From Candidatus Yonathbacteria bacterium (GTDB lineage: Bacteria > Patescibacteriota > Minisyncoccia > Phycocordibacterales > JACNGX01): 64,000 nucleotides of DNA. Under the pieces are notes generated by a model. That model was not told the origin of the DNA. It was given only the letters and a program-made list of their open reading frames with translations, and did not search any database. Positions within the stretch are counted from its first letter, which is position 1. Each line of letters starts with the position of its first letter. The position numbers and the translations under genes are program-made. Location: assembly GCA_013334825.1 (NCBI GenBank), contig JAAXWR010000001.1, forward strand, positions 75,769-139,768. Direction: 5' to 3'. Below are positions 1,621-30,058 of this stretch, in pieces.

Positions 1621-1647
1621 AAACGCCTATTAGGCGTTTTTCTTTTG
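1621..1647 (+). terminator. Rho-independent terminator after 16S (AAACGCC-TATTA-GGCGTTT + T-run); a second GC hairpin follows at 1657-1681
   Basis: Perfect 7-bp stem followed by TTTTTCTTTTG. Confidence 0.7.
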
Positions 1648-1833
1648 CCCAAAAAAGCGCGCCGACACGCTGTCGGCGCGCCAAATTCTAAATTCTAAAT
1701 CCGAAATCCTAAACAAATAAGAAGCGCAAGAGCAAACCGCGTGCTTCGCCGGAGAAGGAAAGCATTGACATATTATATATCTATAGTAGTATTTTTTTAG
1801 ATTGTAAATCAATATAAACTAAAAGTATCAGCA

Positions 1834-2412: not shown

Positions 2413-2475
2413 TGAATACACGCTCCTCTTCGAGGAGCGTTTTATATATCTAATGTCTCGTGATACAATGTCTCC

Positions 2476-3069: not shown

Positions 3070-3449
3070 TAGTGCACACGTCCAGTCGTCTGTTTTTGGT
3101 CTACACTGTGGGATGTTTTTGTTTTGAATGTGTGTCACTTGAACATTTGAATTTGTTTAGGATTTAGAGCTTCATGCTTCGGATTTCGCCCGTTTGGGTT
3201 TTGTTGCCTATTGGGGTTATTTTTGCTATAGTTTTCTTCGGTTCGCCGAAGCGAATGAGATTCGCGAAGGCGACCCTTGATGCGCTTTCAGTACGCCGAA
3301 GCCTTGGCGGAGGCGACCTGCCTTCGCTAAAGCTTCGGCGAGGTGAAGCCCGCCTTCGTCCGCAAGCGGACTTCGGCGAGGTGAAACAGTCCTGATATGT
3401 TCCATATAAATACGTCACTCGGACGTTATAAGAATGAATACGACCAATA

Positions 3450-3486
3450 GTGCGCTTCGTGCGCGTTTATCAGGCAGGTTAGAGCG
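3450..3486 (+). pseudogene. truncated copy of the tRNA-Ile(GAU) 5' half (acceptor through anticodon loop), ends in the CCTGAT|ATGTTCCATATA junction
   Basis: GCGCGTTTATCAGGCAGGTTAGAGCGCAGTCCTGAT matches the 5' half of the intact tRNA at 3562; part of a ~100-nt tandem duplicated unit (3397-3561). Confidence 0.7.
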
Positions 3487-3561
3487 CAGTCCTGATATGT
3501 TCCATATATGCACTGCACTCGGATGATATACAAATGAGTACAATCAAATAGTGTCCCGTGT

Positions 3562-3635
3562 GCGCGTTTAGCTCAGGTGGTTAGAGCGCAGTCCTGATAA
3601 GACTGAGGTCCCAGGTTCGAGTCCTGGAACGCGCA
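3562..3635 (+). tRNA. tRNA-Ile (anticodon GAU)
   Basis: Acceptor GCGCGTT/AACGCGC, D-arm TAGCTCAGGTGGTTAGAGC, anticodon loop CTGATAA, T-arm CCAGGTTCGAGTCCTGG. No encoded CCA. Flanked by a perfect 17-bp inverted repeat (3529-3545 / 3648-3664). Confidence 0.9.
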
Positions 3636-3689
3636 CACGGAACAGTATTGTACTCATTTGTATGACATCCTCGTTTGTGCATATAAGAC

Positions 3690-10864: not shown

Positions 10865-12199
10865 ATGGATGATAATTCTTTTCACATTGAACATGTGCAT
10901 TATGTGCATATGATTGGTATTGGTGGCATTGGTGTGTCCGCGCTTGCGCGAATGTTTCTCGCGCGTGGTATTACGGTATCGGGATCTGATATATCGGAGA
11001 GCGTTGTAACGCGCGCGCTTGAGGAGAGGGGTGCCGTCGTCACCATTGGGCAGGCTGTCAATAACATTCCAGAAGATGTGGACATGATTGTGTATTCGCC
11101 GGCAATTGTTCCTGGAAATCCTGAATATGATGAGGCAGTGCGTCGCGGTGTGCCTATGTTTTCGTATCCAGAGACGCTTGGTATTATCTCGTGTGGTATG
11201 ACAACGATTGCGGTATCAGGTACGCACGGTAAGACCACGACAACAGCGATGATTGCGCATATTCTGGTGAAGACGGGGAAGAGTCCGACTGTTGTCGCGG
11301 GGAGTTTGATGAACTCTATGCCTGCACACGGTATCTCAGAGCGGACGAATTTTATCGCAGGAGAGAGTGATATGTTTGTTGTAGAAGCCTGTGAGTACAA
11401 ACGTTCGTTTCTGAATCTTTCGCCTTCAGTACTTGTTATCACAAATATTGAAGAAGACCATCTGGATTATTATAAAGACATTGATGATATTCTTGATGCG
11501 TTCAAAGCGCTTGTGGAAAAGACGGGTGAGAAGGGAACAGTGATCGTTGATATGTCGCTCCCGCATATGAGAGAGGCACTTGATGGATATACAGGGACGA
11601 TTGTCGATACACGAAGTGTTGAAGGAGACATCACACTTGCAGTGCCAGGGATGCATAATGTGGCGAATGCGCGCGCGGCGGTCGCCGCCGCGCGCGCATG
11701 TGGTGTTTCGGGAGAAGATGCACGAAAGGCACTCGAAGACTTTAAAGGTACATGGCGACGAAGCGAATACAAGGGACTTACACCACAAGGAGCACGTGTC
11801 TTTGATGATTATGCGCATCATCCGACAGAAATACGAGCAACACTTGCAGGTTTTCGCACTACATATCCCCAAAAGCGTCTGACAGTCGTCTTTCAACCGC
11901 ACTTGTATTCTCGCACGCGAGAGTTTTTGCATGATTTTGCTGAGGCGTTTTCTGATGCGGATACGATTATTGTCACGGATATTTATGCCGCACGTGAAAA
12001 AGATACAGGGCTTGTGCATGCGCGTGACATTGTCGCATTATCAACACATGCTGATATGCGCTATGGTGGAACACATGATACGAGTATACATATTCTTGAA
12101 GACACAACACAGCTCGACGAGCATACTATTCTTATCACTATGGGAGCGGGCGATGTGTATACGATAGGGGAACGTCTTTTATTGAATGAAGAAATGTGA
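10865..12199 (+). CDS. murC: UDP-N-acetylmuramate--L-alanine ligase
   Basis: MIGIGGIGVSALA, AVSGTHGKTTTTAMI; directly follows murD. Confidence 0.88.
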   Translation: MDDNSFHIEHVHYVHMIGIGGIGVSALARMFLARGITVSGSDISESVVTRALEERGAVVTIGQAVNNIPEDVDMIVYSPAIVPGNPEYDEAVRRGVPMFSYPETLGIISCGMTTIAVSGTHGKTTTTAMIAHILVKTGKSPTVVAGSLMNSMPAHGISERTNFIAGESDMFVVEACEYKRSFLNLSPSVLVITNIEEDHLDYYKDIDDILDAFKALVEKTGEKGTVIVDMSLPHMREALDGYTGTIVDTRSVEGDITLAVPGMHNVANARAAVAAARACGVSGEDARKALEDFKGTWRRSEYKGLTPQGARVFDDYAHHPTEIRATLAGFRTTYPQKRLTVVFQPHLYSRTREFLHDFAEAFSDADTIIVTDIYAAREKDTGLVHARDIVALSTHADMRYGGTHDTSIHILEDTTQLDEHTILITMGAGDVYTIGERLLLNEEM

Positions 12200-12212
12200 T
12201 ATACATGACAGT

Positions 12213-12893
12213 ATGGCAACACTTTCTATTGTAGCAACACCAATTGGTAATCTCGAAGACATAACGCTTCGTGCTATTCGTGTACTCAAAGAAGCGGATA
12301 TCGTGTTGTGTGAAGATACGCGTGTGACAAAGCATCTGCTCGATAAGTATGATATTGCCACACCAACAATGCGATATGACGCACACAGCACGCCCACACA
12401 ACAAGAACGTATTTTTAGTCTCCTTGATGAAGGGAAGCACGTGGCACTAGTATCTGACGCGGGAACGCCTGGTATTTCAGACCCAGGGACACACTTAGTG
12501 GGGCTTGTAAGAAAGCGATTGGGAGAGGAAGTTACTATCGAAGCGATTCCCGGACCATCCGCGCTTACTGCAGCACTCTCAATTAGTGGTTTATCACTCG
12601 CATCCTTTATATTTCTCGGTTTTCTTCCACAGAAAAAAGGGAGACAAACACTCTTTACGGAAATTGCTAGATCTGAACGTGCGGTCGTGTTGTATGAATC
12701 ACCACACCGTATCATAAAGACACTAGAAACCTTTGCGGAAATGATGCCAGAACGTACAGTGGCAATTGGAAGAGAGCTGACAAAGATACATGAAGAATTT
12801 GTTTCAGGAAGTGCTGATGAACTTCTTGCATATTTCATTGCGCACCCTGATAAAGTGAGAGGGGAATTTGTCGTCATTGTTGGTGGGTTGTAG
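12213..12893 (+). CDS. rsmI: 16S rRNA (cytidine1402-2'-O)-methyltransferase (tetrapyrrole-methylase family)
   Basis: MATLSIVATPIGNLEDITLRAIRVLKEADIVLCEDTR. Confidence 0.85.
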   Translation: MATLSIVATPIGNLEDITLRAIRVLKEADIVLCEDTRVTKHLLDKYDIATPTMRYDAHSTPTQQERIFSLLDEGKHVALVSDAGTPGISDPGTHLVGLVRKRLGEEVTIEAIPGPSALTAALSISGLSLASFIFLGFLPQKKGRQTLFTEIARSERAVVLYESPHRIIKTLETFAEMMPERTVAIGRELTKIHEEFVSGSADELLAYFIAHPDKVRGEFVVIVGGL

Positions 12894-12914
12894 TAAAGGA
12901 AAAAGATATATTCG

Positions 12915-13250
12915 GTGCGCTTTTCTTTTTGTATATTTAGCCTTATAATGGCATATATGCAACGACTTATCACCACTATCATTCTTGCTCTTGTTGTCGC
13001 CGTGTTTCCGCATCTTGGTTTTCCTGGATATATCAAGACCGCGGCAATAACACTTTTTTCACTTGCCATCGCTCTCATTGCGTATATGGGGTATCGTGAA
13101 GCAAAACACGAGACCCCGTTACCCATGGTATCTTTGCCGCATATGCGCATGCCGTCGTTAAAGAAAAAGAAAACACCAGCGTTTTTCTCAGGCGAGACGT
13201 CTCCTCGTTCATCTGATGAAGATACAGTTTCTAGAGAAGAGACACATTAA
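12915..13250 (+). CDS. small membrane protein (111 aa)
   Basis: Two predicted TM helices. Confidence 0.45.
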   Translation: MRFSFCIFSLIMAYMQRLITTIILALVVAVFPHLGFPGYIKTAAITLFSLAIALIAYMGYREAKHETPLPMVSLPHMRMPSLKKKKTPAFFSGETSPRSSDEDTVSREETH

Positions 13251-14522
13251 TTGTCTCTTGTGAACATCGTGCCCATGCGAAACATTTTCTCACATCTCGG
13301 TCCTATTGGGCACGGACTTCTTGCGGGATCCGTGATGCTTGGCTCAATCGCCATAGCGTATTTTGGTGTACCATTTTCATCTATGGAATATGATGCAGAC
13401 GGTGAATCTGAGACAGCAAATGTTTTTGACATGTTTAATGCATCAAAAACACAAGAAGAAGAGACACCTCTTATTATCTCTGCTTCGCACGTACGTATCC
13501 CCGAACCACTCAAAGCGGTGTATATGACAGCATGTGCTGCGGCGACACCATCTTTTCGTGAACATATTGTGAACATCGCTGAAACAACTGCAGTAAATGC
13601 GGTTATTATTGATATTAAAGATTATAGTGGAACGATATCATTTGCCACCGGCATCCCCGAACTTGATGATGCGACAGAGAATGCCCCCGGATGTGTCGTC
13701 AATGACATGAAAGAATTCGTTGCCGACCTGCACGCAAAACATGTCTATGTGATTGGACGTATCACTGTTTTTCAAGATCCTTATTACGCACCCAAACATC
13801 CAAGTCTTGCAGTACAACGTAAGAGTGACGGTGCCGTATGGAAAGATAGAAAAGGTATTAGTTTTGTGGATGTGTCGGCACAGGAGTATTGGGATGTTAT
13901 TGTGTCTTTGTCGCGCGCGTCATATCTTGCTGGTTTTGACGAACTTAACTACGATTATGTACGGTTTCCATCTGATGGAAATATGACAGATATTCGTTTC
14001 CCAAAAAGCGCGACCATTCTCGCTGAGAATGGAGAACAAGGCAAGGCAATTGCATTGGAAAACTTTTTTATATATCTTTCCACAAAGATGCATGAGACGG
14101 AATGGCTTCCCAAAGGGGATACAGGACCGATGCTATCCGCTGATCTTTTTGGTATGACAGCATCCAATACCGATGACTTGGGTATAGGACAAGTGCTTGA
14201 GCGAGCGGCACCACATTTTGATTTTATCGCGCCGATGGTATACCCTTCACATTATCCACCACAATTCAATGGATATGCTGATCCCAACGACCATCCCTAT
14301 GATATTATTAAATACGCCATGGACACTGCGTCTGCACGACTTGTTGCGATAGGAGAAAGTCCACTTAAGTTGCGTCCTTGGCTTCAGGATTTTGATTATC
14401 CCGTTGATTATACACCTGCGATGGTGTCGGCACAGATTCGTGCGACATATGACGCAGGATTGACGTCATGGATGATGTGGGACCCCGCAAACACCTATAC
14501 ACCATCGGTATTAAGCAATTAA
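13251..14522 (+). CDS. putative glycoside-hydrolase-like TIM-barrel protein (DUF4015/GHL-type), N-terminal TM
   Basis: Family resemblance around YVIGRITVFQD...NYDYVRFPSDG; assignment tentative. Confidence 0.45.
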   Translation: MSLVNIVPMRNIFSHLGPIGHGLLAGSVMLGSIAIAYFGVPFSSMEYDADGESETANVFDMFNASKTQEEETPLIISASHVRIPEPLKAVYMTACAAATPSFREHIVNIAETTAVNAVIIDIKDYSGTISFATGIPELDDATENAPGCVVNDMKEFVADLHAKHVYVIGRITVFQDPYYAPKHPSLAVQRKSDGAVWKDRKGISFVDVSAQEYWDVIVSLSRASYLAGFDELNYDYVRFPSDGNMTDIRFPKSATILAENGEQGKAIALENFFIYLSTKMHETEWLPKGDTGPMLSADLFGMTASNTDDLGIGQVLERAAPHFDFIAPMVYPSHYPPQFNGYADPNDHPYDIIKYAMDTASARLVAIGESPLKLRPWLQDFDYPVDYTPAMVSAQIRATYDAGLTSWMMWDPANTYTPSVLSN

Positions 14523-14535
14523 TTTTTTTACTTGT

Positions 14536-15792
14536 ATGATAACTCGTCGGATTATTTTTTCATTTGTTGCATTACTTTTCCTATGTGTGATGCCATTTGG
14601 CGCACGTGCGGCAGCAGATGATGTAACAGTGTACCTTTTTTACGGAGATGGATGCCCGCATTGCGCTCATGAAGAAGCGTTTCTTGATACACTAGAAGCG
14701 CAGGGCATGCTTCGCACAGAACGACTTGAAGTGTGGTACCACCCAGAGAACAGAGAGCTACTGCAAGACGTGGCGACACGTTTGAATATAACGGTTTCTG
14801 GCGTTCCGGTTACCGTCGTTCGCGACAAAGCATTTGTGGGTTGGCAGAGTGATGAGACTTCGGGTGCGCAACTTGTCACCTTGGTGAATGCGCTTCGGGG
14901 TGGAGATGCACCTGATGTCGTTGCGGAGATTCGCGGTGGCACAAAAGGAGAAGGGGAAGCATCTGTAGATACAACAGGTGGTGATGTTTCCGATGCTATA
15001 CCAGATACGACATCATTTGTTCCCGATACGGTTAGTTCCGCATTTGATACACACACTCTCCCGTCTCTTGGCGGATGGTCGGTTGCTGACATGTCACTTC
15101 CGTTTGCGACGGCAGTGTTCGGGCTTCTTGATGGTTTTAATCCGTGCGCGATGTGGGCGCTTGTCTTTTTGATAACGCTTCTCTTTCATATGAAAGACCG
15201 ACGTAAGATGTGGATACTCGGTGGGACATTTATCCTTGTGTCGGGTATTGTGTATTTTCTTTTTCTTGCAGCATGGCTCAATGTCATGTTTGTGCTTGGA
15301 GGACTTGGATGGATGCGCGCAGTTATTGGGTTTGTGGCGCTCGGAGGTGGAGGATGGTATTTATATGAATGGAAGACAGCACCTCCCGCAGGGTGTGTTG
15401 TGACAAATGAATCACAAAAGGAACGATTGTTAGAACGTATGCGTGGCGCGATTGGACAAAAAAGTTTTTTGTTGTCGCTTGGAGGTATTATTGTTGTCGC
15501 GGTACTCATCAATGCCGTTGAGCTTGTATGTTCGGCAGGACTTCCCGCTGTGTATACGCAAATTATCGCATTGCATGACTTGCCGTTTTGGGCGTATTAT
15601 GGATATCTTTTATTGTACATACTCTTTTTCATGCTTGATGACATGATTGTATTTGGTGCAGCGATGGCGACACTTCGTCTCACGGGTATTAATGCCAAAT
15701 ACACACGTATCTCACATCTCATCGGTGGTATACTCATGATTATTATCGGCATACTCCTCATCCTCAAGCCAGAATTGTTGCTGTTCGGGTAA
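14536..15792 (+). CDS. thioredoxin-like domain (CPHC) fused to a DsbD/CcdA-like multi-TM thiol-disulfide transporter domain
   Basis: Signal peptide, VYLFYGDGCPHCAHEEAFL, then a TM domain with conserved Cys (FNPCAMWALVFL, ELVCSAGLP). Confidence 0.55.
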   Translation: MITRRIIFSFVALLFLCVMPFGARAAADDVTVYLFYGDGCPHCAHEEAFLDTLEAQGMLRTERLEVWYHPENRELLQDVATRLNITVSGVPVTVVRDKAFVGWQSDETSGAQLVTLVNALRGGDAPDVVAEIRGGTKGEGEASVDTTGGDVSDAIPDTTSFVPDTVSSAFDTHTLPSLGGWSVADMSLPFATAVFGLLDGFNPCAMWALVFLITLLFHMKDRRKMWILGGTFILVSGIVYFLFLAAWLNVMFVLGGLGWMRAVIGFVALGGGGWYLYEWKTAPPAGCVVTNESQKERLLERMRGAIGQKSFLLSLGGIIVVAVLINAVELVCSAGLPAVYTQIIALHDLPFWAYYGYLLLYILFFMLDDMIVFGAAMATLRLTGINAKYTRISHLIGGILMIIIGILLILKPELLLFG

Positions 15793-15862
15793 TACTTGCA
15801 AAGTTTTGTATTTTGTGGTATATGTGTATCTGGTTATATTTTTTCAAATTAAATGAATAAAG

Positions 15863-16075
15863 ATGCCGGTAAAAACTTTTGTTCGAGAGTATTCTTCAGT
15901 TGAGGATGGTACCATAAAGGAAATATTTGAAAGCCTCGATAATGAGGTGTACGAATGTTTTCGTAACATGGAGATTGATGTTGCTGACTCCATCCTTGCA
16001 ATGCCTCGAGGGATTCTTATTCTTCGTAAGGTTACATACCGTGGATCCCCTTTTTATCCCCCAGGGGCTGACTAG
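15863..16075 (+). CDS. hypothetical protein (70 aa)
   Basis: ORF followed by a terminator. Confidence 0.35.
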   Translation: MPVKTFVREYSSVEDGTIKEIFESLDNEVYECFRNMEIDVADSILAMPRGILILRKVTYRGSPFYPPGAD

Positions 16076-16091
16076 AGAATGATGTTTTGAA

Positions 16092-16120
16092 GCGCGGACG
16101 GCAGTCCGCGTTTTTTTGTT
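16092..16120 (+). terminator. Rho-independent terminator (CGCGGAC-GGCA-GTCCGCG + T7)
   Basis: Hairpin plus T-run. Confidence 0.75.
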
Positions 16121-16315
16121 TCATTTTTTATTGTCATAGATTGAATCCTGCATAGTTTTAGTTGTTTTTCGATATCACTTTTATACATAACGGATGTGCA
16201 TAAAGTGAAATTAGTATCAGTCCATTCACTTTTTCAGTAACAATGTCATTTGCAAAAGTGGGGATGAATCCACATTGTGAGTAACATAAAACAGTCGTCT
16301 TCGTATGTTCCCTAG

Positions 16316-16400
16316 CACTATGCACTGTGCACCACGTAGGATGCACAGCAAGCCACGTGGGATGCACAGCACGCCATGTAGGGTGCAGGGCAAGCGTACT
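16316..16400. repeat. three tandem ~21-nt repeats (CCACGTRGGATGCACAGCA); inverted copy at 49681-49790
   Basis: Direct reading; RC matches the 49681-49790 block. Confidence 0.8.
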
Positions 16401-16455
16401 CGTTTGTACTTCGTAACCACTATACTATTCGTAAACAAAAACGAACTCAAAAAAA

Positions 16456-16487
<32 letters not shown>

Positions 16488-16532
16488 AACTAGCAACTGA
16501 CAACTGACGACTAGTTCTGCTATACTATAGTC

Positions 16533-18686
16533 ATGTCTTCTGATGCTCAACAGATAACCTATTTTGCTGAAACTGATTTTCGCAATAAGCGACAAAAGTT
16601 TGGTGTCAAAGCAAGTGACCGCACACGTCACATGTATGTGATTGGAAAGACGGGTATGGGAAAGTCTACCATGCTCGAGAATATGGCGATTCAAGATATC
16701 TTGAACGGTAATGGTGTCGCGGTGATGGACCCGCACGGAGACTTTGCGGAAAAGATTCTTGAATATGTGCCCGAAGAACGCATCAATGATGTTGTGTATT
16801 TTGCGCCGTTTGATATGGATTACCCCATCTCATTTAACGTGATGGAAGACGTTGGATATGACAAGCGACACTTGGTGGTATCTGGTCTCATGAGCGCGTT
16901 TGAAAAGATTTGGGCGGACGCATGGTCGGCGCGTATGGCGTATATTTTGCAAAATACACTTTTTGCATTGCTCGAATATCCAGACTCGACGCTTCTTGAT
17001 ATCAATAAAATGCTTGTCAACAAGACGTTTCGCAAGGATGTCGTGGACAAGGTGACAGACCCGACGGTGAAATCATTTTGGGTTGATGAATTTGCCAAAT
17101 ATACTGACCGGTATACGCAAGAGGCGACACCTGCCATTCAAAACAAAATCGGACAGTTTACTTCCAATCCACTCATTAGAAATATTGTTGGACAGCCGAA
17201 CTCAACCTTTGATATTCGCAAGATAATGGATGATAAAAAGATTCTCATCATGAACTTGTCCAAAGGACGTATCGGTGAAAGTAATACCAATCTGCTCGGA
17301 AGTATGCTCATTACAAAGATTTATCTTGCCGCGATGTCTCGTGCTGATGATCCCAACAGAGCAAATTTACCAAACTTTTATTTCTTTGTGGACGAGTTTC
17401 AGTCATTTGCGAATAAATCGTTTGCGGATATTTTGTCCGAGGCACGTAAATATAAATTAAATCTCACCATCGCACACCAGTATATTGAGCAGATGGATGA
17501 AGAGGTGCGCAGTGCGGTCTTTGGTAACGTCGGTTCTATGATTGTTTTTCGTGTTGGTTCGTTTGACGCGGATATTTTTGAAAAAGAATTTGCCCCACAA
17601 TTTGTTGCCGAGGATATTGTGAATCTTGGTTTCGCACAAATATATTTGCGTCTGATGATTGATGGTGTGGGATCCAAGCCGTTTTCCGCGACGACATTAC
17701 CACCGATTCAATTGCCCCCAGTATCCATGAAGAATCGTGTGATTGAAACATCGCGTGCATTGTACGCGCGCCCGCGTGTGGAAATTGAAGAAGTGGTGCG
17801 CACACGGCAAGCATTTTTGGCAGAAGATGCTTCGGCATCATCGGCAAAGCCAGCAGGATCATATGACCGTAAGACAGCAGGAGGGCAGGGGACAGTAAAT
17901 GGGTATGTTCCGCGTCCTTCCGGAGGAGGTTCAAACGGAGTGCGTCCACAATCAACTCCCCAAGGGAGCGGTGGATTTTCTCGTAATGATCGTCCTCAAG
18001 AACGAGATACACGTTCGCCCGTTTCGCCTGTGCCATCTACTCCGTCCAATCCTTCTTTGGGGAATGCGGAAGGTCGTCAGGGAGGAGTATCTCTTGATAC
18101 TGTACAAACAAAAGATGTGGGTGTTGCAACAAAATTTACCCCGCCTCTTTCTCATGGAAACCAGACTCCGTCTGTGTCTATTCTTCCTTCACGCGATACG
18201 TCTCGTACCAAGGGAGCGGTAACACCCCTTCCCGGGAGACGTCAGTTTACTGGTCCTGCTCCATCAGTATCTGATAATCGTAGACCTTCTCCCTCTGCGC
18301 AGTCTCGTCCCGCGACTTCCTCACCTATGAGAGAAGAGCGTCAAGTGTCTCTTAGTTCACTTAAAAAAGATATTGCGCATACTGCTCACTCGACACAAAA
18401 TAAAAATGCTCTTCGCGACGCGCTTCAAGGTGTGCTTGCTACTGTAGAAGCGCAAGGAAAAGCTTCCGCGTCTGTTCCTTTGCCGTCTTCCACGCATACG
18501 GCGCCTGTGTCAGAAGATGATGGATGGAAAACTATTCATGGAGAACCAGAGTTTGTAAAAAAACCTCTCACAGAAAATGCAGAAAAATCATCCGTTACTC
18601 CTTCACAAGACGCGCAAAAAGAACATGCATCTACACCAAAAGAAATTCCCGAAACTATTCTTCGTAAAGTACTTGATGATTTATAA
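16533..18686 (+). CDS. P-loop ATPase of the TraG/VirD4/HerA-FtsK (DUF87/AAA_10-like) family, no TM, with a ~280-aa disordered S/T/P-rich C-terminal tail
   Basis: Walker A VIGKTGMGKST, Walker B FFVDEFQ, coupling-protein-like LSEARKYKLNLTIAHQY...GNVGSMIVFRVG; TATACT 8 nt before ATG. Confidence 0.6.
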   Translation: MSSDAQQITYFAETDFRNKRQKFGVKASDRTRHMYVIGKTGMGKSTMLENMAIQDILNGNGVAVMDPHGDFAEKILEYVPEERINDVVYFAPFDMDYPISFNVMEDVGYDKRHLVVSGLMSAFEKIWADAWSARMAYILQNTLFALLEYPDSTLLDINKMLVNKTFRKDVVDKVTDPTVKSFWVDEFAKYTDRYTQEATPAIQNKIGQFTSNPLIRNIVGQPNSTFDIRKIMDDKKILIMNLSKGRIGESNTNLLGSMLITKIYLAAMSRADDPNRANLPNFYFFVDEFQSFANKSFADILSEARKYKLNLTIAHQYIEQMDEEVRSAVFGNVGSMIVFRVGSFDADIFEKEFAPQFVAEDIVNLGFAQIYLRLMIDGVGSKPFSATTLPPIQLPPVSMKNRVIETSRALYARPRVEIEEVVRTRQAFLAEDASASSAKPAGSYDRKTAGGQGTVNGYVPRPSGGGSNGVRPQSTPQGSGGFSRNDRPQERDTRSPVSPVPSTPSNPSLGNAEGRQGGVSLDTVQTKDVGVATKFTPPLSHGNQTPSVSILPSRDTSRTKGAVTPLPGRRQFTGPAPSVSDNRRPSPSAQSRPATSSPMREERQVSLSSLKKDIAHTAHSTQNKNALRDALQGVLATVEAQGKASASVPLPSSTHTAPVSEDDGWKTIHGEPEFVKKPLTENAEKSSVTPSQDAQKEHASTPKEIPETILRKVLDDL

Positions 18687-18701
18687 GTTATTGTAAATCG
18701 T

Positions 18702-20294
18702 ATGAGACACATCTCACTCTCTATACACTATCAGTATATGATTGCCGTAGTGTTTTTGTTCGTGCCTGTTTTTGTGTTTGCCGATGTACGTATGACAGAG
18801 GTGATGTATGATCCTTCAGGCACAGACACGGGAAGAGAATGGATAGAAGTGTGCAATACTGGTGATACGGATATCACACTTTCAACATGGCGTCTATTTG
18901 AGGGTGATACTAATCACAAAATTACGACAACGACATCTTCGGAAAACGGTATACTTGGTGGACATGCATGCGCGATTATTGCAGATAAGCCTGATGCTTT
19001 TGCAAACGACTTTTCCGAGTATACGGGGCGAGTGTTTGACAGTACGTTTTCATTGAATAACACGGGAGAAACACTTATTCTTCGTGACGGTGATTTGATA
19101 GATAGTGATACTACTGTCTATGATGTATCAGCAAGTGGTGCTGGCGATGGTAATACTCTTTCGCGAACTGTATCAGGGGCATGGGTCGCCACTGCTCCCA
19201 ACCCAGGCGTTTGGGATCCTTCATCTTTTCCTGCTCCGATAGAAGCAGAAAAGGACGATACATCAAATACGAATGATGAAGAAGAAACAGAATCAAAAAC
19301 TGTCGAATCATCAGTACTTTCTTGGATTCCCAAACCATCTATCTATGCATACGCAGGGAAGGATACTACAGTGCTTGCGGGCGCATCAGTAGCATTTACA
19401 GGGCAGGGCGCGGGGACGACAAAAACACCACTTAAAATTGCCGAGTATGTATGGAACTTTGGTGACGGTACTATTATGCGTGGACAAAGCGTGTTTCATA
19501 CGTATCGGTACCCGGGAACATATATTGCATATCTCACTGTGGTGTCGGGGGACGTACAAGGAGGAGATAGTGTAACAATCACTGTCAAAGAGCCAAAACT
19601 TACTCTATCTGCGGTGGGGATGGAGTCTGATGATCGATATGTTGAAATAACGAACGGAGCATCAGAAGAAATTGAATTGTCATATTGGTATTTGCGCGCG
19701 GGAGAAAGACAGTTTCGGATCCCTGAACATACGTATATACAGGGAGGCGCATCCGTGCGTTTTCTGGAAGAAGTAACACAATTATCGCCCATGTCTCCTG
19801 ATAGAGTAGCGCTTCTGTATCCCAATCTTCGGACATATACGTCATACGCGGAGACAGTATCAAGAGATGGAGAAACACCTGTTGCGCGTGCAGTCGCATC
19901 CGTTACATCGGCGGTCAAGTCTGTCGCTCAGGCGATTACTACTCCTGTTGTCGAGACATCACAAGCGTCGCGCGCAAATATTGCGACACCAAACCCTACA
20001 GTTCCCGCGGTTTCCTCTGCTGTGGATGAAGGAATACCTCATCAAGAAGCGATACTACAAGACGGAGAAGAGGTAACTCTGTCTACTACACCAGAAGTGC
20101 TTTCTGTGAGCAATGCGGTCGCAGCATCCGCCGCGACAAGTGGCAGTCCCGAACGGTCGTTTTGGTATCTTGCACTTGGAGGTGTCATTATTCTTGGTAT
20201 GGCGGGTGCATTTATCGCAAGTGGGGGAGAAGGGAGAAAGCAAGAAAAAGAAGAAGAAACAAGAGAATCGGATGAATATGAGATTGTGGAGTAA
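18702..20294 (+). CDS. surface protein: signal peptide, lamin-tail domain, PKD domain, second lamin-tail domain, C-terminal TM anchor
   Basis: LTD: RMTEVMYDPSGTDTGREWIEVCNTGDTDITLSTWRL...NTGETLILRDGD; PKD: WNFGDGT...HTYRYPGTYIAYLTV; second LTD VEITNGASEEIELSYWYL. Confidence 0.7.
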   Translation: MRHISLSIHYQYMIAVVFLFVPVFVFADVRMTEVMYDPSGTDTGREWIEVCNTGDTDITLSTWRLFEGDTNHKITTTTSSENGILGGHACAIIADKPDAFANDFSEYTGRVFDSTFSLNNTGETLILRDGDLIDSDTTVYDVSASGAGDGNTLSRTVSGAWVATAPNPGVWDPSSFPAPIEAEKDDTSNTNDEEETESKTVESSVLSWIPKPSIYAYAGKDTTVLAGASVAFTGQGAGTTKTPLKIAEYVWNFGDGTIMRGQSVFHTYRYPGTYIAYLTVVSGDVQGGDSVTITVKEPKLTLSAVGMESDDRYVEITNGASEEIELSYWYLRAGERQFRIPEHTYIQGGASVRFLEEVTQLSPMSPDRVALLYPNLRTYTSYAETVSRDGETPVARAVASVTSAVKSVAQAITTPVVETSQASRANIATPNPTVPAVSSAVDEGIPHQEAILQDGEEVTLSTTPEVLSVSNAVAASAATSGSPERSFWYLALGGVIILGMAGAFIASGGEGRKQEKEEETRESDEYEIVE

Positions 20295-20688
20295 ATGAAT
20301 GTTTATTGTAAGAGAAAATATATTTGAGAAAACCATTTTTATACGTGATATAATTATGTTGTGATAGTGAATTATTATTTTATTTTTTATATATGAAATC
20401 AATACAGATAACTATTTGTAAAAACGGTGAATGTAATAACTATAGAATACCAAAAGAATATGGTTTTGATTTGGTTGATATGATTGCTTTGAGTAATCCA
20501 GCGGAAGCGAAAATGTCTGGAGCAACAATGCCCGAATATTATATAGAAAAAATTGAGATAGAAGAATAATATACGTTGTTTTGATTTGTGTGATGAAATT
20601 ATTTTTTCTCCACAATAACTTATTTTGACAAGCAATGTCTACGAGATACAATATAGTCGTTATTTATTCGCTCTCGTTATTCTTCATA

Positions 20689-21258
20689 ACCAATATGAGA
20701 AATATACTTATACTTACATGCGCAATACTCCTTGGGGTGGGAGGTTTTTTAGCGCTTGCGATTTTTGTTAATCCCACGGATACACTTGCATATTCTTATT
20801 CTGGTAAAAAATGGAACACAACATCTGTTGGTGTTGATGTGAGTGACGCAAGTTGGCCCAGCAGTTGGATTTCTCCTCTCGCATCTGCCATGAGCGCGTG
20901 GAATGGAGCGTCATCTCCGTTTACCTTTTCTTCCAGCGCATCAGGACATAAGTTCACGAGATCAAATATGGGTGTCGGCCCTTTGGCGGTTAATACGACT
21001 TCCTACATTGGAAGTACTATCGTCGATTGCGATACAAATTTCAATCTCTACTACAGCTGGTCCACTTCGGGAAGCGGTTGTTGTTATGACGTACAAAGTG
21101 TCGCCACACATGAATTGGGACACTGGTTAATGCTCTATGATCTTTATGGTGGAGGTGATACTGAAAAAACGATGTATTGGAGCGCCACGACAGGAGAGAC
21201 AAAAAAGAGGTCTCTCCATTCCGACGACATTAACGGCATTAACTATATTTATCCTTAA
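20689..21258 (+). CDS. metzincin-like zinc metalloprotease (matrixin/snapalysin-like), secreted/membrane-anchored
   Basis: HELGHWLMLYD (HExxH...D), Met-turn-like KTMYW, matrixin-like SLHSDDINGINYIY. Confidence 0.55.
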   Translation, partial: TNMRNILILTCAILLGVGGFLALAIFVNPTDTLAYSYSGKKWNTTSVGVDVSDASWPSSWISPLASAMSAWNGASSPFTFSSSASGHKFTRSNMGVGPLAVNTTSYIGSTIVDCDTNFNLYYSWSTSGSGCCYDVQSVATHELGHWLMLYDLYGGGDTEKTMYWSATTGETKKRSLHSDDINGINYIYP

Positions 21259-21293
21259 GATTTCAAATTATTAGTTTTTTTATTTTCAACAAT

Positions 21294-21860
21294 ATGACAA
21301 TTCAGAAAATACTTATCCCAGTAATGATTTTGGTTGTCGTAGCCGTGGGCATCTTTAGTGCCGTGTCATTTGGACGTCAAGATCAAAAGGTTACGATTCA
21401 ATCAAATGCTTCTTTTGCAAAAGTGACGAAAGACGAACTCATACAAAACTCAGATGCACTCGCGATTGTAACGGTGGAAAATATCAAAAGTTTCGAGGAT
21501 GTTTCAGATATTCGACCCGGAAAGCAAGATGTGTTCAGTGATGTTACTGTGGTAGTTAACGAATATCTTTATAATCCTCAAAAATTGACAGACTCCGAGC
21601 TAGTGTTGCGTGTATTGGGAGGGGAAACTGAAGATACGAAAATGATTGTAAACGGAGGAGCTTCCTTTGAAGAGGGCGAACAAGCAGCTGTATTTTTGAA
21701 AAGAAAAGATGACCAGGTTTTTGAAGTTGTAGGTTGGGCACAAGGTAAATATACCATTAAAGAAGACAGTATTGGGCAAGGTCAAGAAAAAGTATTTATG
21801 AAAGATATCTTTGGAAAAGAAATGACCCTTGATGACTTTAGATCCGAATTTACCGAGTAA
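21294..21860 (+). CDS. membrane-anchored hypothetical protein (188 aa)
   Basis: N-terminal TM, then a soluble domain. Confidence 0.45.
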   Translation: MTIQKILIPVMILVVVAVGIFSAVSFGRQDQKVTIQSNASFAKVTKDELIQNSDALAIVTVENIKSFEDVSDIRPGKQDVFSDVTVVVNEYLYNPQKLTDSELVLRVLGGETEDTKMIVNGGASFEEGEQAAVFLKRKDDQVFEVVGWAQGKYTIKEDSIGQGQEKVFMKDIFGKEMTLDDFRSEFTE

Positions 21861-21940
21861 GATAATTTTACGCTCAAAGCGCAAAAAACACCCACAAGGG
21901 TGTTTTTTGCTTAACTATCGCTCGGATGTTGGGCGTGAGT

Positions 21941-21983
21941 GGGTGTACCAGGACTTGAACCTGGAACCGCCGAGGTATATGTT
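21941..21983 (-). pseudogene. tRNA 3'-half fragment (anticodon-loop 3' side, T-arm CCAGGTTCAAGTCCTGG, acceptor TACACCC) with no 5' half; bounded by the junction TATATGGAACAT
   Basis: RC reads ATATACCTCGGCGGTTCCAGGTTCAAGTCCTGGTACACCCA; no matching GGGTGTA acceptor upstream. Confidence 0.6.
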
Positions 21984-22018
21984 CCATATAATGACGGCAC
22001 TCAAACGTTAAAAATACG

Positions 22019-22092
22019 TGGGCGCACAGGGACTTGAACCCCGAACCGCCGAGGTATAAGCTCGGTGCTCTAACCAATTGAGCTATGCGCCC
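22019..22092 (-). tRNA. tRNA-Ile (anticodon UAU; decodes AUA)
   Basis: RC: GGGCGCA-TA-GCTCAATTGGTTAGAGC-A-CCGAG-CTTATAC-CTCGG-CGGTT-CGGGGTTCAAGTCCCTG-TGCGCCC-A; 5-bp anticodon stem, U33, anticodon T-A-T. Confidence 0.75.
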
Positions 22093-22190
22093 ACGTATTC
22101 TCACGTTTTCGTTTGTCATTATATATAAACATATAATGACATCATTCGAACGATATGTATGCAAGCATACAATCGATTCTCATTCGTCAT

Positions 22191-22228
22191 TATAAGCTCG
22201 GTGCTCTAACCAATTGAGCTATGCGCCC
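22191..22228 (-). pseudogene. partial duplicate of the tRNA-Ile(UAU) 5' half
   Basis: TATAAGCTCGGTGCTCTAACCAATTGAGCTATGCGCCC identical to the corresponding part of the 22019-22092 gene. Confidence 0.8.
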
Positions 22229-22762
22229 ACGTCCGGTCTCCGTTCTTTCGTGAAATTTTAAGTTCGGGGCTCCTTCGCCTTGTCAGAGCTTTAGGGCAGG
22301 TAACCAACTGCCGTGTCCTCCGAAGCCTTGGCGAAGGAGAATGCTAGGCACCCCTATATGTTCCCTTATGTGATATAAAATACATAACTTGGGATATAAG
22401 CATGGTACTACAGAATAACTTTTTTTTCCACCTATTGTAATAGAGTGAGTGCAGTAAGTGTTGCTTCCTACATTCTAGTTTGAATTGCAACAAATAGTAT
22501 TCCTTGGTGGCACTTTTCCTAACACAAACACCTCATACTGAATCAAATAGCCGAGACGTTTTTTCGCCTGATAATTCCGAAAGGACGGGCCTCTTTAAAA
22601 TGAAAAAAATGTGGTGTAATGTTGTTGTTCAATTGCCCGCCATATCCCAGTATCTCTCATACCAAGGTTAAACCTTGGGAGTATGCCCTGTACCAACATT
22701 AAGAGTTGGTACAGAACGTGTATTGTCATGTCATGGAGCATTGCTCGTGTTACAATACTCGT

Positions 22763-25250: not shown

Positions 25251-27452
25251 CTAAACTTTCTCAAGTAGTGTGAGAAAGTCCTTCAATTTTTGTATTTTTT
25301 CTGGTTCACGCAATTTAATGGTCTCGTGTTGATCGTGCATATGCTCGTGCCAGTTGTTACTTAGAATCTCATCTTTGACTGCACATTTTCCATCGATTTT
25401 TTCTAGATACGCAGATATGCTCCCGTCTGCAAGCGTGCTTTTATCAAGCATGAAGTAATACTTATGTCTCAAGATTCTCTCTAGACATTTTCGGACTTTT
25501 CCTATGGCTTCGTCTACATTACGAGAGTTATCTGCCGCATCTTTAATATATTTGATATCTTTGAAATACTGCTCTTCAATCAACTCATCCACGTCACATT
25601 CTTCAAGTACTGAACCAAATGTTTTAGAATGTTTAATTCTTAGTATTTTCGTATCTGAAGAAGGCAACTTTTCTTGCAGTCTTCCCAAAAAACTATCATC
25701 ATGAGTTAGGATAATTACCTGTTCTGGTAAATCATCACTCTCATTTCTAATATCAATTATTGCTTTTGCTAGATAGTCTTTTCTGTTTGAATCAAAACTT
25801 GAAAAAGGATCATCTAGAATGACTATTTTACTTTTCAAATTTGAATCCGTTTTAAGACTTGAAATGAAAAAAGCCATTGCTAAGAGTCTTCGATCACTGT
25901 CACTGAGTGTGTTTCCAAAATACGCTTTATCCAAAGGCTCTTCATCTGACTGAGAACGTTTATTGGAAATTGGTACTGTTTCCCCATCGATAACAAACTC
26001 ATAATCAAGAAAGTGTGCATCAGATCGTGTGAGATTTGATTTGCTATTTAACTTTTGTATTGTAAAATCTGCCTTTAAAACATCCCTCAAGACCATGTTG
26101 ATTTGTTCCTGATTCTTTTCAATTGTACTTTTCGTTATCTTGTCTATCTTTTTCCGTAATGCATCAATTTTTACTTTCTTCATTTCAACAGCTTTTCCAG
26201 CTTGCTGGTATTTTTCTGCGAGAGTTACACCTTCTTTACTATGGCGGTATTGCGACAATTGAAACTGTTTCAATTCATTTTCAAGACCTTGTAATTTGAG
26301 AGCAGAAAACTCTTGTGTTTTTAATTCATTTAAAATTGAATGTAATTTTTTGATTTCTGAAACAAATACTTGAAAATGACTGTCTTCCGCTTCACAATTG
26401 ATAGGATGATTCAGATTTTTTAGTTTTTTTGCAACATCTTCATCAAGAGCTTTTTTGTTTTCCAACAATAGTTTTTTATCTAAAATATCTTCACACTTAA
26501 CCCCGAGAGAAGTGAATTTCGCTATTTCTGCTTCTGGATCAAAGCGCAAGAATCTCTCTCCGTATGTTTCTATTTCTTGTCGTGTTGTTGTGTAAGTTTC
26601 CCCGAAGACTTTTTTGAAATCCTTAATCAGATCGGTGACTGGTGCAAGATTTTGTCCGCAGAATATACATGCATCTGAATCTTTTTTCAACAAGGTGACA
26701 CCGTCTGCCAGAAAATTCTTTGACGCATGTTCATCATTCCAGTGATTGCGAATATGTTCATCAATATTCTTTTCAGCGGATGTGTCCAGGGTTTTCTGCA
26801 TTGCAGCAAAAAAATTATCAAACGTACTTGCAAGAGGTGATGTTGGTACTAACTGCTTGAGTGCATCACTATTTTTTAGTCTTTGAATTTTTTCTTTTTT
26901 CTTTTCAACCTCCTCATCAATATTTGTAATCTCTATGGCTTTCAAGAAAAAATCAAATGTGCCTAGATCATATTTTGTATATTCTGTTTTTATTTGGTCA
27001 CGTTGTTTCTCTAGAGCATCTTGTTCATCACGCAATTCCTTTAACTTCGTGACTTTTTGTCCCACGTTTTCACCAACAAAGATGCCGTGTAAAGATGATT
27101 TGTGTTTATGATCTATCTCGTCACCTACAAAAACTGAATTATGTATAAAATTGTTATCAAATATAGCAATGTTTGGATTATTCCAATTTCCATTTGCTAG
27201 AGTTAGATGCTTGTTGCTACTATCTAAAATATCAATCACGATGTCGCCAGTGTGCCCAAAACTTTTCTTTCCTTTTATACATTTCTGATCAGAATTTTTG
27301 AGAGATCTAAAAATGGTGGTTAGGGTACTTTTACCATAGGTGTTGTAACCAAAAATGATTGTATGTTTAAGAAACCTTAAATCGTCATTGCCACCATTGG
27401 CAAAGTTTTTGAATTTTCCCAACCCCTCAATTTTTAATATCTTACTAATCAT
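25251..27452 (-). CDS. SMC-like ABC ATPase (733 aa) with a coiled-coil insert carrying CxxC (CIFCGQ, res ~262) and a ~150-aa C-terminal extra domain; candidate RloC/PrrC-like anticodon nuclease
   Basis: Walker A GYNTYGKST, signature-like LSDSDRRLLAMAF, Walker B/D-loop IVILDDPFSSFD, H-loop ILTHDD; C-terminus VRKCLERILRH; last gene of the R-M operon. Confidence 0.45.
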   Translation of the reverse strand: MISKILKIEGLGKFKNFANGGNDDLRFLKHTIIFGYNTYGKSTLTTIFRSLKNSDQKCIKGKKSFGHTGDIVIDILDSSNKHLTLANGNWNNPNIAIFDNNFIHNSVFVGDEIDHKHKSSLHGIFVGENVGQKVTKLKELRDEQDALEKQRDQIKTEYTKYDLGTFDFFLKAIEITNIDEEVEKKKEKIQRLKNSDALKQLVPTSPLASTFDNFFAAMQKTLDTSAEKNIDEHIRNHWNDEHASKNFLADGVTLLKKDSDACIFCGQNLAPVTDLIKDFKKVFGETYTTTRQEIETYGERFLRFDPEAEIAKFTSLGVKCEDILDKKLLLENKKALDEDVAKKLKNLNHPINCEAEDSHFQVFVSEIKKLHSILNELKTQEFSALKLQGLENELKQFQLSQYRHSKEGVTLAEKYQQAGKAVEMKKVKIDALRKKIDKITKSTIEKNQEQINMVLRDVLKADFTIQKLNSKSNLTRSDAHFLDYEFVIDGETVPISNKRSQSDEEPLDKAYFGNTLSDSDRRLLAMAFFISSLKTDSNLKSKIVILDDPFSSFDSNRKDYLAKAIIDIRNESDDLPEQVIILTHDDSFLGRLQEKLPSSDTKILRIKHSKTFGSVLEECDVDELIEEQYFKDIKYIKDAADNSRNVDEAIGKVRKCLERILRHKYYFMLDKSTLADGSISAYLEKIDGKCAVKDEILSNNWHEHMHDQHETIKLREPEKIQKLKDFLTLLEKV

Positions 27453-27458
27453 ACAAAT

Positions 27459-28229
27459 TTATTTCTTCATTCTTTGCTTGGCGATTCTTGCATATTCTTT
27501 ATCTTGCTCAATTCCAATCCATTTTCGACCATATTTTTTTGCTACATATGTCGTTGTGCCACTTCCCAAAAATGGATCAAGAACAATATCGCCTTTGTTG
27601 GAGCTTGCTAAAATAATACGCGTGAGCATTTCCTCAGGCTTTTGCGTAGGATGCAATGCGCGACCATTATCGCCACGCAAGCGCTCTTTTCCTTGGACAA
27701 GCGGAAGTTCCCAGAAATCACGCATTTGTTTTAGGTTTCCGTCCTTTTGCTTATTAGGATTTATTTTCTTTATTTCTTCGTAGTTGAATGTCCATCCACT
27801 TCCTTTTACAGCCCAAATAACAAACTCAGTTGAGTGTGTGAAGACACGCCTTGTCATATTCGGCATGGCGTTTGTCTTGTACCAAGTGATGACGTTATTT
27901 ACTTTGTAATCAAGTTGTTTTAATACAATCATCACCTCCGCGATGTTGTGATAACTACAGGCGACATAAATTGATCCTTTATCTTTCAAAGCTCTATCGC
28001 AAGCACCCAGCCATTTTCTCGTAAATTGTAAATATTCCGGTGCAGACATTTTGTCCCATTCTTCGTCGACCATGTACCAATCTCCGCCAGTCTTGTTGCC
28101 TTTCCAGTGCAAACCGTTTCCAGATAGATTATAAGGAGGATCAGCAAAAACCAAATCAATAGATTTTTCCTCAACCTTTTTATTGAGAGTGTCTATACAG
28201 TCTCCATTGTAAATAATATTTGTTTTCAT
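27459..28229 (-). CDS. beta-class DNA methyltransferase (N6-adenine or N4-cytosine, DPPY motif)
   Basis: DLVFADPPYNL (motif IV) N-terminal, VLDPFLGSGTT (motif I) C-terminal. Confidence 0.85.
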   Translation of the reverse strand: MKTNIIYNGDCIDTLNKKVEEKSIDLVFADPPYNLSGNGLHWKGNKTGGDWYMVDEEWDKMSAPEYLQFTRKWLGACDRALKDKGSIYVACSYHNIAEVMIVLKQLDYKVNNVITWYKTNAMPNMTRRVFTHSTEFVIWAVKGSGWTFNYEEIKKINPNKQKDGNLKQMRDFWELPLVQGKERLRGDNGRALHPTQKPEEMLTRIILASSNKGDIVLDPFLGSGTTTYVAKKYGRKWIGIEQDKEYARIAKQRMKK

Positions 28230-28232
28230 GTT

Positions 28233-30056: not shown

Positions 30057-30058
30057 AA

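Follow-up and report, generated by a model that had tools for sequence, protein, structure and literature searches.

Positions 16533–21860 of a 64,000-nucleotide stretch of a Candidatus Yonathbacteria genome (contig JAAXWR010000001.1; the whole stretch is hereafter called the window) contain four open reading frames (ORFs), all on the forward strand, at 16533–18686 (717 aa), 18702–20294 (530 aa), 20635–21258, and 21294–21860. They encode an ATPase, a surface protein with lamin-tail domains (LTDs) and a PKD domain (the LTD-PKD protein), a metalloprotease, and an anchored protein of 188 aa, respectively. The interval consists of two unrelated units, namely the ATPase/LTD-PKD operon at 16533–20294 and a protease cassette at 20695–21860. 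For comparison, we used ATPase-bearing loci from 80 species genomes, in which ORFs were called and then clustered. Counts of genes downstream of the ATPase gene refer to the 72 loci that have at least 1.5 kb of sequence on its 3' side, counts of upstream genes refer to 63 loci, and genes for relaxases and for components of type IV secretion systems (T4SSs) were looked for in 10 kb on each side of the ATPase gene at all 80 loci.

The ATPase Belongs to the Type IV Coupling Protein Branch

Within the FtsK/HerA P-loop superfamily, the ATPase falls into the type IV coupling protein (T4CP; VirD4/TrwB) branch. It scores above the gathering thresholds of the Pfam models T4SS-DNA_transf (e value 4.5e-10, 39.4 bits, cut-off 20.1), TrwB_AAD_bind (7.3e-10, 38.7 bits, cut-off 20.5), DUF87 (3.4e-8), and TraG-D_C (3.4e-5, 24.2 bits, cut-off 22). 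The NCBIfam equivalog models (TraD, CD1115) remain far below their cut-offs, which places the protein in none of the named T4CP subfamilies. In a phmmer search against the PDB, chains of TrwB (9e-7) were the sole solved relatives with an e value less than 1e-3, and HerA was found at 0.02. An AlphaFold2 model of aa 1–463 (predicted local distance difference test score [pLDDT] 78, predicted template modeling score [pTM] 0.81) shows a RecA-like core into which helices are inserted at aa 109–233, and its top Foldseek matches in the PDB are Cagβ (8dol) and TrwB (1e9r/1gl7), with e values of ~3e-9 and TM-scores of ~0.54–0.61, followed by a second tier made up of HerA, DotL, and VirB4. The Walker A (GKTGMGKST, 16644–16670) and Walker B (FYFFVDEFQ, 17376–17402) motifs are invariant across 67 homologs. 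The fold begins at about residue 8, and the protein has no transmembrane (TM) segment, there being no 19-residue window with a Kyte–Doolittle mean greater than 1.6.

Several results bear on the distinction from other branches of the superfamily. The FtsK_SpoIIIE model gives an e value of 0.08, which is below threshold, the helicase_HerA model reaches 15.8 bits against a cut-off of 970, no NurA partner gene accompanies the ATPase gene, and close relatives have an additional gene for an FtsK that contains alpha and gamma domains. Because the best sequence and fold matches are to TrwB and Cagβ, the FtsK model is sub-threshold, and FtsK is encoded by a gene of its own, we consider the ATPase to be of the coupling-protein type and not an ortholog of HerA or FtsK. 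A grouping with HerA/FtsK housekeeping clades, which an initial annotation made from the sequence had held up as the contrary outcome, thus did not occur. Its description of a coupling-type ATPase with Walker A and B motifs, no TM segments, and a 280-aa tail rich in S, T, and P agrees with the Pfam matches, the fold, and the hydropathy profile, and among the domains that it named across the four genes, DUF87, TraG-D_C, LTD, and Peptidase_M10 were all matched by profile searches and PKD was recognized through the PKD_4 model. We also considered an anti-phage defense system of the HerA type and rejected it: the PADLOC matches are weak and partial (mad8, 4e-14; HerA, 1e-9), the partner genes are absent, and conservation as a core gene argues to the contrary.

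The tail of the ATPase (aa 438–717) is rich in S, T, P, and G, with S, T, and P making up 33% of its residues versus 16% in the core. In the AlphaFold2 model of the full-length protein, pLDDT is less than 50 for aa 442–605 and 645–700, and two helices are predicted at aa 607–643 and 707–716. Both helices are conserved islands within tails that are otherwise unalignable and range in length from 111 to 374 aa across orthologs. The first island is a helix around NKNALRDALQGVL (18399–18437), and the pattern N-x-x-L-[KR]-x-A-L was found in 49 of 79 ATPase orthologs. The C-terminal motif of the window protein is EIPETILRKVL (18642–18674; consensus E-[IV]-P-E-x-x-L-[KR]-K-x-L), and the pattern [ED]-[IVL]-P-x(2,3)-L-[KR]-x-[ILM]-L is present in the last 35 residues of 71 of the 79 orthologs versus 2 of 1,580 shuffled tails. 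One clade of loci and many distant representatives carry an alternative C-terminal motif, K-P-G-[QD]-x-h-K-F, and the two motifs are mutually exclusive. A treble-clef zinc finger (PF23477) is located at the start of the tail in some orthologs (e.g., L094, aa 465–493; L095, aa 461–489; P0036, aa 482–511) and is lacking in the window protein.

The ATPase Is a Core Gene without Linkage to a T4SS

Sequence identity of the ATPase across the 80 species genomes is 67–88%. More than 8,000 database matches were obtained, of which the best 120 are 69–98% identical and come from genomes that include Yonathbacteria, Lloydbacteria, Kaiserbacteria, Taylorbacteria, and Zambryskibacteria. The ATPase is encoded in at least 579 species-representative genomes, and 6,205 representatives of clusters at 50% identity match it with an e value less than 1e-30. 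The ATPase is a vertically inherited core gene of Paceibacteria.

Genes for VirB4, VirB6, and relaxases are absent from the 64-kb window and from the 10-kb flanks at the 80 loci, and a second ATPase paralog was not found in the window. A T4CP belonging to a mobile element was rejected on the grounds that there is no relaxase or VirB gene, that vertical conservation is high, and that identity to plasmid and phage relatives does not exceed 37%. A survey published in 2025 identified 5,713 T4CP homologs in 2,918 of 3,026 Patescibacteria assemblies, of which 148 are near virB4 (PMC12102498). Orphan T4CP homologs of Patescibacteria have already been reported, and the absence of T4SS linkage at our loci agrees with that survey, whose authors state that exaptation of these homologs "cannot be ruled out" (PMC12102498).

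Metagenomic relatives that are 45–55% identical differ in length. Their ATPase domain starts at residue 300–460 and is preceded by an N-terminal extension that opens with a hydrophobic TM hairpin; both PHROG 5156 (1.4e-58) and gp156 of Bacillus phage G have this long form. At one locus (L095), a separate DUF8128 gene (1–1170) is located 48 nt 5' of a short-form ATPase gene (1219–2994), and the DUF8128 protein and the N-terminal extension of the long-form proteins are homologs (31% identity, e value 4e-65). The arrangement at L095 reflects a gene that was split or else a stage on the way to losing the membrane module. No homolog of DUF8128 was found in the window. Given the extensions of the long forms and the separate DUF8128 gene, the short-form ATPase looks like a coupling protein from which the membrane-proximal module has been lost or split off. 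In phage G (L085, 2196–6338), gp156, which is annotated as "MsbA-like," adjoins the VirB-like gp155, and relatives of these two genes are found in phages CP-51, JL, and Shanette as a T4SS-like ATPase pair in large Bacillus phages.

The LTD-PKD Protein Is an Accessory of the ATPase

The second gene of the operon encodes a Sec-exported, single-pass membrane protein with the LTD-PKD-LTD portion outside and a short, conserved acidic tail inside. The protein matches the Pfam LTD model in two stretches (1.3e-19, 71 bits, cut-off 34.3) as well as PKD_4 (1.3e-13). Its architecture comprises a signal peptide (aa 1–27), an LTD (27–135), a PKD domain (216–294), a second LTD, a linker rich in S, T, A, and V, a TM helix (aa 487–507; 20160–20222), and a cytoplasmic tail ending in DEYEIVE (20271–20291). 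It is 100% identical to a Candidatus Yonathbacteria protein at NCBI. LTDs are present in all 28 family members and PKD domains in 26 of them, in the domain order LTD-PKD-LTD, and none of the 28 contains a nuclease domain (EEP, OB-fold, or metallo-β-lactamase); LTD and PKD were the only domains found. Pfam and hydropathy thus agree with the secreted protein predicted in the initial annotation, with two LTDs flanking a PKD domain and a C-terminal TM anchor. The further step taken there, from LTDs to DNA binding or uptake, goes beyond the evidence: a nuclease domain is missing, the role of bacterial LTDs is described as unresolved (PMC6085458), and the genes conserved nearby have to do with the envelope and glycans and not with competence or a T4SS.

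Viewed from the ATPase side, an LTD-PKD gene is among the next two genes in 25 of the 72 loci and is the immediate neighbor in all but one of these. Stop-to-start distances range from −65 to +76 nt and are mostly less than 20 nt; the spacer in the window is 15 nt, so that the close spacing noted initially stands and the figure of sixteen nucleotides does not. The 25 paired loci are scattered over several clades of the ATPase tree. Viewed from the LTD-PKD side, which gives the stronger test, all 26 members at the loci are encoded 3' of the ATPase in the same orientation, 25 of them adjacent to it and one with an intervening gene. The LTD-PKD genes of five more relatives (L081–L083, L086, and L089) are also downstream of the ATPase gene in the same orientation, and eight of eight further members (30–41% identical, from a protein search) lie directly behind an ATPase gene with gaps of −29 to +8 nt. 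In total, about 34 of 34 LTD-PKD members are linked to the ATPase, 33 by adjacency and one with one gene between. The co-occurrence of the two genes across genomes that had been put forward therefore holds, in 25 of 72 loci from one side and in about 34 of 34 members from the other. The LTD-PKD gene is translationally coupled to the ATPase gene, and the LTD-PKD protein is accessory to the ATPase, not vice versa.

Beyond the TM helix, members of the family have a few basic residues and then a short acidic end with the terminal pattern [YFW]-x-[IL]-[IVLT]-[EDH] (short form, Y-x-I-[IV]-E). Under its strict definition, the pattern matches 79 of 120 representatives of the family versus 24 of 2,400 shuffles and 6 of 2,170 other windows of the same proteins; when Ile-first variants are included, the motif is found in ~100 of the 120. 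A general sorting signal consisting of a TM segment and an "EYEIxE" tail was considered and rejected, as 15 of 18 pattern matches within the loci are LTD-PKD proteins and the remaining three are spurious. All five ATPases with the KPG[QD]xhKF C-terminus (L006–L008, L094, and L095) have an LTD-PKD partner in which the tail motif is missing.

Gene Neighborhood and Upstream Region

The conserved gene order at the loci (L001–L097; the part ahead of the ATPase corresponds to 12186–15792 in the window) is an RsmI-like methylase, a small TM protein, a DUF4015 protein, an optional small gene, the ATPase, the LTD-PKD protein where present, and epimerase and family 4 glycosyltransferase (GT4) genes. The DUF4015 protein, which is a secreted protein resembling glycoside hydrolases, has its gene ahead of the ATPase gene at 49 of the 63 loci. 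A GT4 gene is found within six genes 3' of the ATPase in 54 of 72 loci, in a cluster that also contains GT2, GT11, Wzy_C, UbiA, and MurB. The optional small gene lies directly 5' of the ATPase gene and in 8 loci encodes a type IV pilin-like protein with an N_methyl motif; a gene for a thioredoxin-like polytopic membrane protein is located there instead in the window, in L001 and L002, and in L089 as far as the contig reaches. In the window and its nearest relatives, tRNA-Ile and RecG take the place of the downstream glycosyltransferase block. The coordinates of the operon, the cassette, and the features that border them are listed in table 1.

Table 1. Coordinates of features of the ATPase/LTD-PKD operon, the protease cassette, and their borders in the window
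Feature	Position	Strand	Evidence
(TAAC)8 simple repeat	16456–16487	+	Regular expression count
ATPase promoter-like site, CTGACA-18-TATACT with TG	16497–16526	+	Consensus scan
ATPase core, aa 1–437	16533–17843	+	Pfam, phmmer versus PDB, AlphaFold2, Foldseek, hydropathy
ATPase disordered tail, aa 438–717	17844–18686	+	pLDDT, composition, motif counts
LTD-PKD type I membrane surface protein	18702–20294	+	Pfam, hydropathy, tail-motif counts
AT-rich spacer (GC 0.265) between operon and cassette; contains the cassette promoter-like site	20295–20694
Matrixin-like (M10) metalloprotease, 187 aa, secreted or anchored	20695–21258	+	Pfam, MMP-8 alignment, family conservation
N-terminally anchored protein, 188 aa, conserved partner of the protease	21294–21860	+	Hydropathy, homologs behind protease elsewhere
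tRNA-Ile(UAU) bounding the cassette	22018–22092	−

The promoter-like site of the ATPase gene ends 7 nt 5' of the ATG; it is a pattern match only, and shuffled sequence is expected to yield as many such sites as the region contains. The TAAC tract, the presence of which ahead of the genes had been noted correctly, has eight copies in the window versus three at the same place in L089 (1341–1352), the ATPase of which is 98% identical. Given its variable copy number and its position directly 5' of the promoter-like site, (TAAC)n may be a phase- or level-variable simple repeat. What had been described as a CACGTG repeat block is in fact a set of three imperfect 21-nt tandem repeats at 16320–16382, and an exact CACGTG occurs once. 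The 740 nt 5' of the ATPase gene (15793–16532) additionally contain a 70-aa ORF without homologs and a strong terminator-like hairpin at 16089–16114. As L089 has just 242 nt in this region, ~500 nt of the 740 nt in the window are strain-specific.

Farther from the operon, an island of low GC content (0.35) on the reverse strand at 25251–31867 encodes an AAA_13 ATPase, an N6_N4 methylase, an AlwI-type restriction enzyme, and a RadC-Dam methylase fusion and is probably a restriction-modification or defense island. Positions 1–3636 of the window contain a 16S rRNA gene truncated by the start of the window and, after it, a pair of ORFs and tRNA-Ile(GAU), and no 23S rRNA gene is present in the window.

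The Protease Cassette Is an Independent Module

The protease matches the Pfam model Peptidase_M10 (1.6e-7, 31.7 bits, cut-off 24) and aligns with the catalytic domain of MMP-8. It contains HELGHWLMLYD at 21109–21141 and the Met-turn KTMYW at 21166–21180. In more than 90% of 55 members, the zinc motif is HExGHxLxLxD, with Asp for the third His and no Gly, compared with HExxHxxGxxH, and the TMY of the Met-turn and a C-terminal KRxLxxDDxxGI are invariant in the family, which is small (58 matches, including Methanosarcina). The M10 match, the Met-turn, and the C-terminal motif are in line with the earlier designation as metzincin-like, from which the protein departs in its third ligand and in the absence of the Gly. 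Because 55 of 55 homologs are about 187 aa long and a TTGACA-16-TACAAT site is located upstream at 20625–20652, translation most likely starts at 20695 and not at 20635. The protease and the 188-aa protein each have one N-terminal hydrophobic segment; the latter is thus anchored, as its description as a membrane protein implied, but by a single N-terminal pass, and it is not polytopic. The sole Pfam match of the 188-aa protein is to DUF6550, below the cut-off, and it has no match to PHROG, PADLOC, or NCBIfam models.

No homologs of the protease or of the 188-aa protein were found by tblastn in the 80 related loci. In L081–L083 and L001 (88%- and 85%-identical relatives), the LTD-PKD gene is directly followed by tRNA-Ile and RecG. 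The sole relative with the same four-gene order is a TARA Oceans contig (L086), the copy of the 188-aa protein in which is 96% identical. Positions 20615–22229 are 90% identical at the nucleotide level to L086 4221–5825, whereas the ATPase is 79.5% identical and the LTD gene is barely alignable, and the difference between 90% for the cassette and 79.5% for the ATPase suggests a recent lateral exchange of the cassette. On two unrelated contigs of the candidate phyla radiation (CPR; L087 and L088), a 55%-identical protease is followed by a homolog of the 188-aa protein (26% identity, e value 3e-26), and this pair is situated between rpsI, which precedes it, and prfA and comEC, which follow. The cassette possesses a separate promoter-like site, a 5' spacer with a GC content of 0.265, and a hairpin with a T-run after 21860. 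Its absence from the 80 loci, its presence elsewhere, its own promoter-like site, and its higher identity to L086 indicate that the cassette is an independent two-gene module, which probably moves laterally. The grouping of all four genes into one cluster in the initial annotation is accordingly abandoned, as the protease and the 188-aa protein are missing at the related loci and form a cassette of their own in unrelated CPR contexts.

The cassette is inserted next to tRNA-Ile(UAU). Partial copies of this tRNA flank it at 21939–21984 (3' half, 83%) and at 22191–22232 (5' half, exact over 42 nt) and resemble traces of earlier integration or excision events at the site. An att-flanked island was rejected as a description of the cassette, as these partial duplicates are 34–100 nt away from the tRNA and the cassette is not enclosed by them.

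Interpretation of the ATPase/LTD-PKD Operon

We tentatively favor, with somewhat less than even confidence, a model in which a coupling-type motor is recruited to the membrane in trans and the LTD-PKD protein is its dedicated partner. In this model, the ATPase would assemble into a hexameric motor on the cytoplasmic side of the membrane and, after the loss of the ancestral DUF8128/TM module that longer relatives retain, would be recruited in trans via its C-terminal motif and, where present, via the cytoplasmic tail of the LTD-PKD protein. A surface-exposed binding module could thereby be coupled to ATP-driven translocation of a polymer, with the channel encoded elsewhere; by analogy, the polymer would most probably be nucleic acid. 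A precedent for anchoring in trans is TraI of pIP501, which is thought to anchor TraJ, a coupling protein that lacks a TM domain (PMC13037476), and the T4SS of Patescibacteria derives from monoderm MPF-FATA systems, in which T4CPs without TM domains exist (PMC12102498, PMC13037476).

A number of observations weigh against this model. The LTD-PKD gene is missing next to the ATPase in 47 of 72 loci, and with two thirds of the genomes lacking it, the partner is dispensable for the ATPase. The function of the terminal motifs as docking elements is something that we purely infer. Covariation between the C-terminus of the ATPase and the tail of its LTD-PKD partner is probably the signature of a single clade, and two loci run counter to it (L080 and L096, in which a type-1 ATPase is paired with a tail-less LTD protein); we treat it as a hint only and not as proof. 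TM-scores against T4CP structures are only ~0.54–0.6. Bacterial LTDs have no demonstrated role in DNA binding (PMC6085458), and a t4cp homolog is nonessential in transposon sequencing of Candidatus S. epibionticum (PMC12102498). Finally, the DUF4015 and GT4 neighbors point to envelope glycan biology over nucleic-acid transport, and the conservation of this glycan-gene context creates a serious rival, which is discussed below.

The alternative that survives best, although we regard it as unlikely, is that the ATPase is the coupling protein of the chromosomal T4SS of Patescibacteria (VirB4, VirB6, and TrsD near oriC) and acts in trans, whereas the LTD-PKD protein is the missing PrgB-like adhesin that stabilizes contact with the host. 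This is consistent with the membership of the ATPase in the T4CP family, with the MPF-FATA origin of the system and the TM-domain-less T4CPs known there (PMC12102498, PMC13037476), and with the survey, in which VirB4 of the Patescibacteria clade was found in 2,407 of 3,026 assemblies, t4cp was often far away from virB4, and an adhesin was not detected (PMC12102498). However, in the same survey T4CP homologs occur in more assemblies (2,918) than VirB4 (2,407), there are about two copies per genome with only 148 of 5,713 near virB4, and t4cp was nonessential where T4SS genes were essential (PMC12102498). In addition, conservation of 70–88% is unusual for parts of a T4SS, and the conserved neighbors are glycan genes.

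Those neighbors are the basis for a glycopolymer locus, in which the LTD-PKD protein would bind or organize a surface glycan that is made by GT4 and trimmed by DUF4015, and the ATPase would energize assembly or export of this layer. The DUF4015 gene upstream and the GT4, GT2, GT11, Wzy_C, UbiA, epimerase, and MurB genes downstream, at the frequencies given above and often only 1–60 nt behind the ATPase or LTD gene, are in line with this proposal, as are reports of bacterial LTDs together with oligosaccharide-binding domains (PMC6085458). We nevertheless consider it improbable, in that glycan transport is known for no ATPase of the FtsK/HerA/T4CP families, the window and its closest relatives have RecG and not a glycosyltransferase cluster downstream, and unrelated genes are tightly packed in compact CPR genomes.

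It is also doubtful that the two genes lack any functional coupling, with the ATPase serving as a housekeeping DNA translocase in repair, segregation, or uptake and the LTD-PKD gene hitchhiking on a strongly expressed operon. Retention of the ATPase at the 47 loci without the LTD gene and the occurrence of RecG, FtsK, and Mur genes near the ATPase in close relatives would be expected in that case, but about 34 of 34 LTD-PKD members stay beside the ATPase despite identities of 25–45%, with frequent overlap of stop and start, and the conservation of a cytoplasmic tail in a protein displayed at the surface implies that it has a partner inside the cell. That all four genes form one DNA-uptake or contact apparatus, as initially proposed, is very improbable, for the one close relative with the same order (L086) is outweighed by the absence of the protease and its partner from the 80 loci and from L081–L083 and L001, by their co-occurrence after rpsI elsewhere, and by the promoter-like site, low-GC spacer, and deviating identity that set the cassette apart.

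Within the favored model of a motor recruited in trans, the short-form ATPase might more specifically be a conjugation-independent import motor for host or environmental DNA or RNA, with the LTD-PKD protein as a lineage-specific TM adaptor that acts via the docking motifs; we rate the chance of this as small. If true, it would mean that a T4CP works in reverse, without a relaxase, in metabolically reduced epibionts. Orphan T4CP homologs are present in ~96% of Patescibacteria assemblies, and the locus bears on the question of their function that was left open by the survey (PMC12102498), as well as on the uptake of host nucleic acids by these bacteria, a question raised recently (bioRxiv 10.64898/2026.06.21.733656). 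The lost membrane module, the tail motifs, and a strictly adjacent surface partner in 25 of 72 Paceibacteria-type loci provide testable handles, and setting the cassette apart avoids a misleading annotation of a four-gene "system." Relative to the literature that we searched, the TM-domain-less architecture with conserved tail motifs, its relation to long forms with DUF8128, the dedicated LTD-PKD partner and its cytoplasmic motif, and the conserved envelope-locus context are new.

Comparison with Known Systems

Each component resembles characterized proteins and differs from them in defined ways. The protease has the HExxH zinc site, Met-turn, and C-terminal helix motif in common with matrixins (M10); unlike them, it is minimal (187 aa), has Asp as the third ligand and no Gly, and is always followed by an anchored partner of ~190 aa. 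The LTD extracellular nucleases ExeM and Xds are similar to the LTD-PKD protein in having a signal peptide followed by an LTD and in their location at the cell surface (PMC6085458), whereas the LTD-PKD protein is without their OB-fold and EEP nuclease; its additional parts are a PKD domain, another LTD, a TM helix near the C-terminus, and a cytoplasmic motif.

HerA and FtsK share the P-loop superfamily with the ATPase, but their sequence models score below threshold. The long-form DUF8128-T4CPs (PHROG 5156; phage G gp156; and those of Bacillus, Streptomyces, and haloarchaeal plasmids) have an ATPase domain homologous to that of the window protein and carry an N-terminal module of 300–460 aa with a TM hairpin that the window protein lacks. 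In TraJ and TraI of Enterococcus pIP501, a coupling protein is putatively tethered by a separately encoded membrane protein, as is proposed here; in contrast to that pair, the candidate partner is a large LTD-PKD-LTD protein that is missing from two thirds of genomes, and there are no tra genes nearby. The T4CPs TrwB of R388, VirD4, and Cagβ resemble the ATPase in having a P-loop nucleotide-binding domain with an inserted all-alpha domain. Unlike these, the ATPase is without an N-terminal TM domain, is encoded by a core gene of the chromosome that has neither a relaxase gene nor T4SS genes beside it, and belongs to a family distinguished by extreme conservation and by a disordered tail of 111–374 aa that has a C-terminal motif of its own.

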